Assembly: GCA_018667355.1 (NCBI GenBank)
Contig: JABIVC010000003.1
Span: forward strand, 9,525 to 73,524
Reading direction: 5' to 3'
Source: Gammaproteobacteria bacterium
GTDB taxonomy: Bacteria; Pseudomonadota; Gammaproteobacteria; GCA-002705445; GCA-002716945
DNA length: 64,000 nucleotides
Below are positions 42,741 through 45,575 of the stretch, piece after piece. The position numbers were made by a program, and so were the translations under genes. Position 1 is the first letter of the stretch. Each line of letters begins with the position of its first letter. The notes beneath the pieces are model-generated. The model searched no databases, was not told the origin of the DNA, and worked only from the letters and a program-made list of their open reading frames with translations.

Positions 42741-45575
42741 ATGCGTCTATCAAAAATTAAATTAGCTGGTTTCAAAACATTCGTTGATCCAACTGTCTTA
42801 TCTTTTCCTAGTAATTTAATAGGCATTATTGGCCCTAATGGTTGTGGAAAATCTAATATCATAGATGCTATAAGATGGGTTATGGGTGAATCCTCAGCTA
42901 GAAATCTTCGTGGTGAGTCCATGGATGATGTAATATTTTCGGGTTCATCATCTAGGCCAGAAGTCAGTAAAGCATTTATAGAATTATATTTTGATAATGA
43001 AAATAATACTCTAGATAGTAAGTTTGCCAGATTCAATGAAATTGTAATACGAAGAGAAGTTTCTAGAGATGGAACATCTAACTATTATTTAAATAATACA
43101 AGATGTAGACGAAAAGATATCAGAGAAGTCTTTTTGGGAACAGGATTAGGCCCTCGTAGTTACGCAATCATTGAACAAGGAATGATTTCCAGGTTAGTCG
43201 AATCAAAGCCTGAAGAACTAAGGACATATCTTGAGGAAGCTGCCGGTATTAGTAAATATAAAGAAAAGAGAAGAGAGACAGAGCTCAGGTTAAAACATAC
43301 GAAAGATAACCTCAATAGATTAAATGATGTAATGAAAGAAATATCATCTCAGCTAAATAAGCTTGAAAGGCAAGCAAAAGCAGCAAATGACTACAAAGAG
43401 CTCAAGGATACCGAGAAAGGCTTGAAATTGAATTTATTAAGCCAGAAATGGAACAATTTTAACCTGGAAATCATAGAGTTAGACAAGAATATAAGTAAAT
43501 CTAATATAGAGCATGAAAAACAGAAATCCCTAGTAACTAATAAAGACAAGCTAATTGAAGAAACCAGAGTTGACAGAAATAAAAAGCAAGAAATCTTTAA
43601 TAATGCTCAAGCTGATTTTTATCATATTGGAAGTGAAATAGCAAAGTGTGAAAAAGATATTGAGCATTCTCAAGAATCTGAATTTTCAAGACAAAAATTG
43701 ATAGATGAGATTATATCAAATATAGAAAATTTTAAAAAAGAGCAAGAAAAAGAGAGATCAAGGATTAATAATTTAGATAATATAGTAAAAGATAAACAAA
43801 AAATGCTCTCAAATGTGACTGAAGAGTTATCTGTATTAAATAAGGAAAAAACAGAGTCTAATTTTGCGCTACAAAATTGGCAAACAATATACAATGACTT
43901 TATTTCTGCTCAATCTGAAACTAAAAATAAACAAGAGATTGAGAATACTAAAATTAATGCTTCAGAGAAATCCATAGAACTTTTAACTAAAAGATTGAAA
44001 ATATTAGAATCCTATACAATAGATGATGACCAGAATCAGTCTGATAAAAATATTATCATAGGTACTGCTAATGATATCCAGCAAAAGGTCTCATCTATAC
44101 TGATAGATATTGAAAGGTCTAGTTCTTTCAATCAAGGTGATGATAAATTATTTAAAATATTACCATCTTCTATTAAATATATATCTGAGAATCTAAAAAA
44201 CTTAATAAAAAAAATTAAAATATTGATTAGATCACAAGATGATGAGATTAGTGATGTTAAATCAAAAATTAATGATTATCAATCCTCCATCAAGAAGGCA
44301 AAAGAATCATTAGAGAATCTCCATTTAGCAGTACGTTCTAATGATGAAAAGAAAATTAAATTAGAAAAAGAAAGAATAGAGTTTAAGCAAATAATTGATA
44401 AAGGGATATGGAAATTAGAAGAGCTTCAAAAATCTCAAAACGACTTAAATATTTCAATTTCATCATTATTGTCGGAAAAAGCAGCTGCTCAAGAAAATTA
44501 TACTAGAATTAAAAGAGAAAGAACTGATTTGGAAGACAGAAAATTAATACTATTATCCAATGACTCAACACCAGCTAAACCATCCTCTGATATGCAAAAT
44601 CTGTTAAAGAAGTTACTTGATGATAAAAAGAGTCAAGAGATAAACTTATCAGGAATAAGAGATTCTTTGGCCTTACTTGATAAAAAGACGTCTGGTTTTG
44701 AGTCTGATAAAAATGATATTAATATTATTATTTCTGATCTTAGGGAAAAACTAGAAATTATGAAAATATCTCTTAGTGAGAAGACCGCTCAACGTAATTC
44801 ACTAAAAGAAAATTCAGATATGCCAGTTTCTGAAATAGAAAATGCTCTGAATCAAACATCATCATCTGACAGTATTGAATCAATTGACAAGGAGATAAAT
44901 GCTATACAGTCTAAAATTAATAACCTAGGTGCTATTAACTTAGCAGCTATTGACGAGTTAAAAGATCAAAAGGAAAGGAAAACATATCTTGATAATCAGT
45001 ATGATGATTTATCAAAATCAGTTATGACGCTTGAGAATGCAATTAAAACTATTGATAATGAAACCAAGGTTAAGTTTAAAGATATCTTTGACCAGATTAA
45101 TAATAATTTAAATAGTTTCTTTGGAAAAATCTTTGGAGGTGGAAAAGCTCATCTTGAAATGACAGATAATGACCTTCTTAATACAGGTGTATCAATAATG
45201 GCAAGACCACCAGGGAAATTAATCAAAAATATAAACTTGCTCTCCGGTGGAGAAAAAGCAGGTGTAGGTATTGCATTTGTATTTTCAATATTTAAAATAA
45301 ACCCAGCCCCTTTTTGTTTATTAGATGAGGTTGATGCACCATTAGATGAAGCTAATAATACAAGATTCTGTAATGTCGTTAGAGAAATGTCAGAAACTGT
45401 TCAGTTCATATTTATTACACATAATAAATCTACAATGGAGTTAGCAGATATTTTATCAGGTGTAACTATGCGTGAACCTGGTGTCTCAAAACTTGTATCT
45501 GTTAATGTAGGTGAAGCCGTGGATATGACAGCAAATAAAAAAACTTTATCAGGAAATCTAAATCAACCTAATTAG
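42741..45575 (+). CDS. smc: chromosome segregation SMC ATPase, shortened and apparently lacking the hinge
   Basis: [46 protein letters not shown]; long coiled coils. Confidence 0.93.

Follow-up and report, generated by a model that had tools for sequence, protein, structure and literature searches.

Can a bacterial condensin work when the domain that joins its two Smc subunits has been lost? Current models give the hinge two roles: as the site of constitutive dimerisation it closes the Smc-kleisin ring, and it also binds DNA. The question is raised by a gene in a 64,000-nucleotide (nt) stretch of a gammaproteobacterial genome (assembly GCA_018667355.1, contig JABIVC010000003.1; hereafter the window), where positions 42741..45575 hold an open reading frame (ORF) for an Smc of 944 amino acids (aa) plus stop codon (window features named here all lie on the + strand). 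An earlier note on this DNA, referred to below as the original prediction, described the product as an Smc whose hinge has given way to a short helical turn. The present analysis establishes that the product is an orthologous Smc, a real hinge-less condensin conserved throughout its order, and shows this Smc to have working-looking heads, long arms, a predicted helical hairpin as its tip, and all of the canonical partners. The architecture class has been reported once before, and is not a first.

Identity of the protein and extent of the loss

The NCBIfam equivalog TIGR02168 (SMC_prok_B) matches the protein with 844.6 bits against a cut-off of 567.35, split into two stretches; the first aligns aa 2-436 with positions 1-433 of the 1181-position profile, whose positions ~433-700 remain without a match. 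In the protein scan Pfam gives one SMC_N match (aa 3-916), and the MukB family is not among the matches. The N-terminal half of the ATPase head (aa 1 to ~165, an approximate boundary; 42741..43235) carries the Walker A motif GPNGCGKS at 31-38 and the Q-loop residue Q146, and the C-terminal half (aa ~761-944; 45021..45572) carries the signature LSGGEK at 834-839, the Walker B motif LLDEVD at 860-865, the D-loop, and the H-loop residue H894. The residues of all these motifs are invariant among 50 family sequences. Both head halves match chains of solved Smc heads, the nearest being prokaryotic (e.g. 5xg3_A, E 7.7e-116), and the closest full-length relatives are gammaproteobacterial Smc proteins, among which the hinge-less family also groups in an Smc tree. 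The score above cut-off, the invariant head motifs, the colinearity described next, and ligA as the following gene together identify the protein as the orthologous Smc.

The missing part was delimited against Smc proteins of 1161-1237 aa, taken from 11 further families of the class. A MAFFT alignment of the family with these 11 canonical proteins has ~227 columns that are filled in the canonical proteins and gapped in the hinge-less family. A profile-profile alignment (hhalign, 27 hinge-less vs 9 canonical sequences) is colinear and free of gaps up to ~aa 424, pairs ~aa 425-518 confidently with no part of canonical Smc, the hinge columns included, and restarts with confidence at aa 519, opposite ~position 755 of the canonical profile. 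Given that the canonical hinge occupies ~positions 497-656 of that profile, the break and the restart point to aa 425-498 as a replacement for the hinge together with ~75 residues from each of the arm strands beside it. This segment contains no Cys, and so no CxxC, and only two Gly, and so no glycine-rich motif.

The Pfam hinge model, PF06470 (SMC_hinge), has no match in the protein at E<=1 and no six-frame match anywhere in the genome at E<=10. It exceeds its cut-off in none of the 37 genomes of the order, which consists of one family, and the sole sub-threshold match among them (E 0.06) comes from a 621-aa frame that is unrelated. However, PF06470 is weak in this class, so that a missing Pfam hinge alone is not to be read as hinge loss. 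In a class sample it exceeded its cut-off in 326 of 400 scored genomes (the 400 include four unpublished ones, G297, G153, G307, and G075, all with a match). Sixteen of the ~71 genomes without PF06470 were examined further, and other hinge-less lineages of the class may therefore have been missed; seven of the 16 have Smc frames of 1156-1230 aa, seven have no Smc match, one has a frame cut by a contig end, and one, G076, has a short Smc. A canonical-length example is the 1161-aa Smc of G032 (L026 414-3896, +), which has no PF06470 match at E<=0.01.

The same architecture is found across the order. All 21 extracted family genes, from six genera, encode it at 926-944 aa, and smc was found in 22 of 24 family relatives, as a single full-length colinear frame in 20; in G023 the gene is cut by a contig end, and none was found in G021 (92% complete) or G004 (57% complete). 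In G007 (contig C34, 37202-39984) smc is divided, by frameshift or sequencing error, into adjacent frames that overlap, one for aa 1-625 and one for aa 632-937. In a collection of 5.8 billion proteins the tip region has 231 matches for a query from the same genus and 50 for a query from the most distant genus, with PF06470 in none of the 120 and 50 matches listed, and the exact 944-aa protein is recorded on 34 contigs. At the DNA level, a 1.1-kb stretch over the tip recurs nearly word for word in 14 DNA runs from 8 studies, each a possible source of the assembly and at most one the actual source. Contigs from three runs of three studies, one of which may be the source, run across the tip, within which they have neither indel nor joint and agree with the gene at every letter. 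A single 160-nt contig from one RNA-library run lies on 43960-44119 without differences, which is not proof of transcription, and five further RNA runs have small word shares only.

The tip is under purifying selection. Ratios of non-synonymous to synonymous substitution rates (dN/dS) were estimated by the Nei-Gojobori method, with synonymous sites saturated in most pairs. For the least saturated informative pair (L002-L004, dS 0.5-0.74) the ratio is 0.074 in the tip (aa 431-500), 0.073 and 0.085 in the two arm strands, and 0.005 and 0.028 in the head halves; tip ratios of 0.06-0.28 come from other unsaturated pairs. On average, pairwise identity rises from 0.40 in the tip through 0.48-0.55 in the arms to 0.85-0.86 in the heads.

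The partners of a canonical Smc are all represented. Neighbouring genes on contig C14 of the same genome encode ScpA (PF02616, 125.4 bits) and ScpB (PF04079, 173.1 bits), and each is found in 36 of the 37 genomes of the order, the one genome without both being 86% complete. Contig C15 carries parB (132575-132853) and, ~10.7 kb from it, one perfect 16-bp parS palindrome (121849-121864); no other site with up to 2 mismatches occurs in the genome, the 16-bp consensus searched for being the one that we take to be established in the literature. The assembly, from a streamlined lineage whose uncultured marine order has genomes of ~1 Mb, comprises 17 contigs at 94% completeness, and within it neither the MukB N-terminal domain (PF04310) nor the Mks partner DUF4194 (PF13835) has a match, and a genome search with the RecN model TIGR00634 returns smc alone, below cut-off. 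Since no MukB, DUF4194, or RecN match was found, the hinge-less Smc-ScpAB is the only recognisable SMC complex of this genome, whose repertoire looks reduced to one SMC-like protein.

Much of what the original prediction read from this locus stands: the continuous 944-aa frame, the intact head motifs, the position beside ligA, the lack of a glycine-rich motif and of a CxxC hook, and the lack of a hinge at about aa 425-500 (the peptide that it quoted is aa 425-491, from nt 44013 onward). It had also allowed that the deletion might be an assembly artefact or peculiar to one strain, or that smc might be under relaxed selection with scpA and scpB gone. The order-wide conservation and the contigs of several studies that cross the tip speak against the former, and with scpA and scpB kept and purifying selection on the tip, the latter does not apply.

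The arms and the predicted tip hairpin

The N-terminal arm strand (aa 166-424; 43236..44012) is colinear with canonical Smc throughout, and the C-terminal strand runs from aa 499 to ~760, the head boundary being approximate (44235..45020); both were delimited by hhalign and AlphaFold2. In the full-length AlphaFold2 model, predicted helices extend across aa 157-798 with few breaks, as expected of a long antiparallel coiled-coil arm. The N-terminal strand is modelled as helices 157-301 and 317-424 around a break at 302-316, and the C-terminal strand has a break at 604-618 opposite the first and joint-like breaks at 691-734. The facing breaks (43644-43688 and 44550-44594) are flanked by the invariant residues I300, A301, E304, D306, I307, and E308, and mark a conserved discontinuity of the arm, which might be an elbow or a protein-contact site.

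Arm length can be estimated from the offset of 255 between S1090/E1118 of Bacillus subtilis Smc (PMC5344682) and S835/E863 of the present protein, the head boundaries being inferred. An arm strand then measures ~264 aa to the breaks at 425 and 498, or ~296 aa when it is followed through the tip hairpin to the loop. The arm of B. subtilis Smc has 344 aa, engineered shortened arms are functional at 253-267 aa (Mini-Smc), natural prokaryotic Smc proteins show arm-length modes of 238 and 341 aa, and arm length is described as periodically constrained (PMC5344682). If the 70-residue hairpin acts as an "end module", an arm of ~264 aa would fall into one of the permitted length classes, a correspondence that is suggestive only.

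The tip module itself (aa 425-498; 44013..44234), delimited by hhalign, AlphaFold2, and conservation, stands in place of the hinge and the hinge-proximal arm and is predicted to consist of two helices joined by a turn. Tip helix 1 (aa 429-459; 44025..44117) ends in the invariant pair D456-x-x-R459. The apex turn (aa 460-468; 44118..44144) is variable, with no conserved hydrophobic position, and has both the lowest predicted local distance difference test score (pLDDT) of the region in AlphaFold2 and the highest mean entropy (2.39). Tip helix 2 (aa 469-496; 44145..44228) is basic, with a widened hydrophobic face, and is followed by a kink at R497-S498. The full-length model places helices at 317-424, 431-459, 469-496, and 499-603, with the loop at 460-468. 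A model of the sub-region aa 380-545 (22-row alignment; pLDDT 84.1, predicted template modelling score 0.53) places them at 381-424, 429-459, 461-465, 469-495, and 499-544, with no strand. The fold-back that the original prediction located near aa 460-476 thus corresponds to the modelled turn at 460-468, and the structure prediction of the monomer that it proposed as a check yields helices only, with no divergent hinge in either model. These models suggest that the tip is an extended hairpin that prolongs the arm and is kinked at 425-428 and 496-498.

Conservation singles out particular positions in and beside this hairpin. Among the 50 sequences D456, R459, and S498 in the tip and R418 just below it are invariant, and L415, K417, L419, Q447, K486, I492, and K493 are conserved in at least 90%. 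Positions hydrophobic in at least 50% of sequences make up 0.46 of tip helix 2, vs 0.25-0.28 in the arms, and aa 469-498 carry a net charge of +0.157 per residue, vs ~0 in the arms. K417, R418, R459, K486, K493, and R497 are kept basic, and K486, K493, and R497 are basic in at least 90% of sequences. The most distant genus (L021, L022, and L023, with Smc of 926-927 aa) keeps D456, R459, and S498; here helix 1 contains an insert of 3 residues, the linker preceding it is shorter, and position 497 is K rather than R.

Database comparisons describe the shape of the tip rather than its ancestry. The best matches of the sub-region model in the Protein Data Bank (PDB) are long antiparallel two-helix hairpins over almost its full length: an archaeal Smc coiled-coil segment leads (5xg2, with Foldseek E 7.8e-3 and VIA Z 12.1), and hairpins from chemoreceptors, a colicin, and the Rad50 rod come next, all with scores (Foldseek E>=7.8e-3, Z up to 12.1) in the range that is non-specific for helical models. 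A PDB sequence search with the tip profile returned generic coiled coils and designed bundles only, at E of at least 0.0027, and a search of the ESM Atlas with aa 415-510 gave best scores of 0.88-0.89 and matched no family. Among 1.84 billion proteins, a profile of aa 380-545 found 32 representatives only, of which most are fragments and the longest does not exceed 941 aa; by this search, the tip module is confined to this lineage.

A proposed mechanism and its rivals

The explanation that we favour is that the locus encodes the Smc of a working Smc-ScpAB condensin in which the hinge has been replaced by a hairpin and the tips are packed by their helices; taken as a whole, we consider this account somewhat more probable than its negation. 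The order's ancestor would have exchanged the hinge (~160 aa) and ~75 residues of each hinge-proximal strand for a 74-residue antiparallel helical hairpin, while retaining the heads, the joint, and most of the arm, as well as ScpA, ScpB, ParB, and parS. The Smc-ScpAB motor would be loaded at ParB-parS and powered by its ABC heads, and two Smc subunits would be held at their far ends as the helices of the tip hairpins and of the arms beside them pack against each other, forming a rod end that might resemble a four-helix bundle. The basic tip helix 2, with K417, R418, and R459, may substitute for the DNA-contacting face of the lost hinge. The invariant tip residues, the wider hydrophobic face, and the net positive charge of helix 2 are what suggest this packing and this basic surface, to which we give about an even chance.

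Several points weigh against this account or limit it. Dimerisation through the tip is something that we infer, and the hydrophobic and charge hints are modest and come from a coiled-coil-rich protein with an AT bias. A complex prediction with two copies of aa 395-530 scored 0.28 against a mark of 0.42, without controls, and speaks neither for nor against a tip dimer. Both AlphaFold2 models were built on shallow alignments (27 rows for the full-length model, 22 for the sub-region), and the former models the arms as helical and the head poorly, with a mean pLDDT of 67. The selection estimates are affected by the saturation of dS in most pairs, and in one very close pair (L004-L005) a handful of substitutions yield a tip dN/dS of 0.86. 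At 94% completeness, the absences of MukB, Mks, RecN, and ZipA amount to "not found". Finally, the hinge exchange in B. subtilis Smc still made use of a strong dimeriser (PMC5344682), and the sufficiency of a bare hairpin is thus not implied by it.

The main rival is that the apex is not closed at all, the two Smc being joined only through ATP-dependent head engagement and through ScpA bridging neck and cap. Transient alignment of the arms might help, the hairpin would be the cheapest connector between the two strands, and there would be no closed Smc-kleisin ring. In keeping with this, the profile, structure, and sequence searches recognised no dimerisation fold in the tip, the apex loop is variable, and a second order of the class, described below, has hinge-less Smc proteins of ~730, 810-843, and 995-1006 aa with tips of no detectable homology, which fits a tip in need of little specific structure. 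On the other hand, D456, R459, and S498 in the tip and R418 just below it are invariant, the dN/dS of the tip is as low as that of the arms, and length is held at 926-944 aa over six genera, all of which argues for a role beyond that of a linker. We regard an open apex as rather unlikely.

It is very improbable that function has instead shifted to that of a DNA-repair tether akin to RecN or Rad50, which are hinge-free SMC-like ATPases. The arrangement of head, coiled coil, and helical tip does resemble RecN and hook-less Rad50, and recN was not found in the genome. However, no relationship to RecN, whose type of helical interface the original prediction had entertained, is seen: TIGR00634 gives 43.9 bits against a cut-off of 407.85 and the Rad50 models at most 42 bits against cut-offs of 700-1087, compared with the 844.6 bits of the Smc model. 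There is no CxxC, and ScpA, ScpB, ParB, and parS are retained, as are the orthologous position beside ligA and the placement among gammaproteobacterial Smc in the tree.

Still less probable is a highly divergent miniature hinge missed by profiles. The insensitivity of PF06470 in this class, seen in the seven of 16 tested genomes with canonical-length frames and in the 1161-aa protein of G032, would allow for such a miss. Against it, the 74 residues between the arm breaks compare with 116 positions in the Pfam hinge model, both AlphaFold2 models contain helices only, no glycine-rich motif is present, and hhalign gave no confident pairing to the canonical hinge columns. Least credible of all is an assembly artefact or a decaying gene heading for loss, for which one might cite the fragmented and incomplete assembly of a streamlined lineage, the two frames in G007, and the missing genes of G021 and G004, and which is contradicted by the uniform architecture of the 21 extracted genes, the database relatives of the tip, none of those listed with PF06470, the contigs of three studies crossing the tip, and a dN/dS far below 1.

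A second hinge-less lineage, known systems, and genomic neighbours

G076, the one genome with a short Smc among the 16 examined, belongs to a second gammaproteobacterial order. Its 0.9-Mb genome encodes a 733-aa Smc (L037 2100-4298, +; contig C10), and sampling of 15-16 genomes from each of the four families of that order (genomes of 0.8-1.8 Mb) found short Smc frames in 59 of 61, in length groups of ~729-759, 809-843, and 999-1006 aa, with a few cut or partial frames besides. All eight proteins extracted match SMC_N and not PF06470, and loci L037 and L054-L060 stand for the hinge-less Smc of this order; of two canonical controls scanned beside them, one shows its hinge and the second, of 1161 aa, escapes PF06470. 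Hinge loss in this order was accompanied or followed by wide variation in arm length. In the Smc tree each hinge-less group is monophyletic (Shimodaira-Hasegawa-like approximate likelihood ratio test support 100 and 99) and the base is poorly resolved; both groups fall on one side of a branch with a support of 40, so that a single hinge loss is neither shown nor rejected. A tip homology between the two orders, suggested by eye from an "LKxLIxxIKxLxRSQ"-like pattern, was discarded, as hhalign gave E 0.085-0.41 vs 0.007-0.36 for arm controls. The two orders are alike in their streamlined, marine-type genomes and in having an Smc with SMC_N only and no PF06470, and differ in Smc length and in tips that have no detectable homology to that of the 944-aa family.

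Compared with canonical Smc-ScpAB of the B. subtilis type, the lineage described here has an orthologous head, joint, and most of the arm, as well as ScpA, ScpB, ParB, and parS, and differs in an Smc that has no hinge and is ~227 residues shorter. RecN and Rad50/SbcC share with it an ABC head, a coiled coil, and the lack of an SMC hinge, but it scores far below the cut-offs of those families, has no zinc hook, has longer arms than RecN, and is partnered by ScpAB. Engineering of B. subtilis Smc provides a further comparison: a chimera in which a Rad50 zinc hook replaces the hinge is functional (PMC5344682), the hinge fold is exchangeable, and the arms can be shortened to particular lengths. As described there, the engineered proteins keep a dimeriser, either hinge or zinc hook, whereas the natural protein has a Cys-free hairpin only; the hinge was thus swappable for another strong dimeriser (PMC5344682), which falls short of demonstrating that it is dispensable.

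The one earlier report of a natural hinge-less SMC that we found describes an abundant, monophyletic oceanic cluster without hinge or CxxC (PMC12153180, Environ Microbiome 2025). That cluster (cluster 9) is annotated as Actinomycetes and branches near actinobacterial seeds, and its mechanism is left open there (PMC12153180). Compared by description only, it shares with the present lineage an SMC head with antiparallel coiled coil, the lack of hinge and CxxC, and the traits of being marine, abundant, and monophyletic, and is set apart by the Actinomycetes label, as opposed to the Gammaproteobacteria label of this lineage. The original prediction is therefore borne out in that the hinge is gone and a helical hairpin is present, and needs tempering in that the arrangement is less unprecedented than it implied, a hinge-less SMC having been reported in 2025 (PMC12153180) and a second order having an even shorter one. 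Its two proposals for the dimer, a new helical interface or contact through the heads alone, both stay conjectural.

What the locus adds is a natural case in which the full partner set of ScpA, ScpB, ParB, and parS occurs with an Smc where 74 predicted helical residues appear to take the place of the hinge, and a correction or extension of the report that placed hinge-less SMC in Actinobacteria (PMC12153180). It also offers small natural proteins for SMC biochemistry on the need for apex closure, the minimal tip contact, and the relation of arm length to function. A broader reading, which we advance as a tentative possibility, is that a bacterial condensin can work without a dedicated dimerisation domain at its arm ends in both streamlined marine orders, through either a minimal, lineage-specific hairpin contact with a DNA-binding basic patch or no apex closure. 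Should the apex indeed be open, these bacteria, abundant in the ocean, would organise their chromosomes without needing a topologically closed Smc-kleisin ring, and if the broader reading is correct, repeated hinge loss would be part of genome streamlining.

The neighbourhood of smc agrees with its identity. Downstream, ligA (45580..47580), encoding an NAD-dependent DNA ligase with the Pfam domains DNA_ligase_aden, OB, HHH_2, and BRCT, starts 4 nt 3' of smc (gap 45576-45579); there is no zipA between the two genes, and the 94%-complete genome yielded no ZipA_C match. Between smc and the next gene of G076 lies an ORF of 217 aa, membrane-anchored and ZipA-like in appearance. Upstream, at 37946-41087, are a yfgM-like gene (TPR_21), bamB, and der, an order that we take to be usual for Gammaproteobacteria and that fits the taxonomic label of the assembly.

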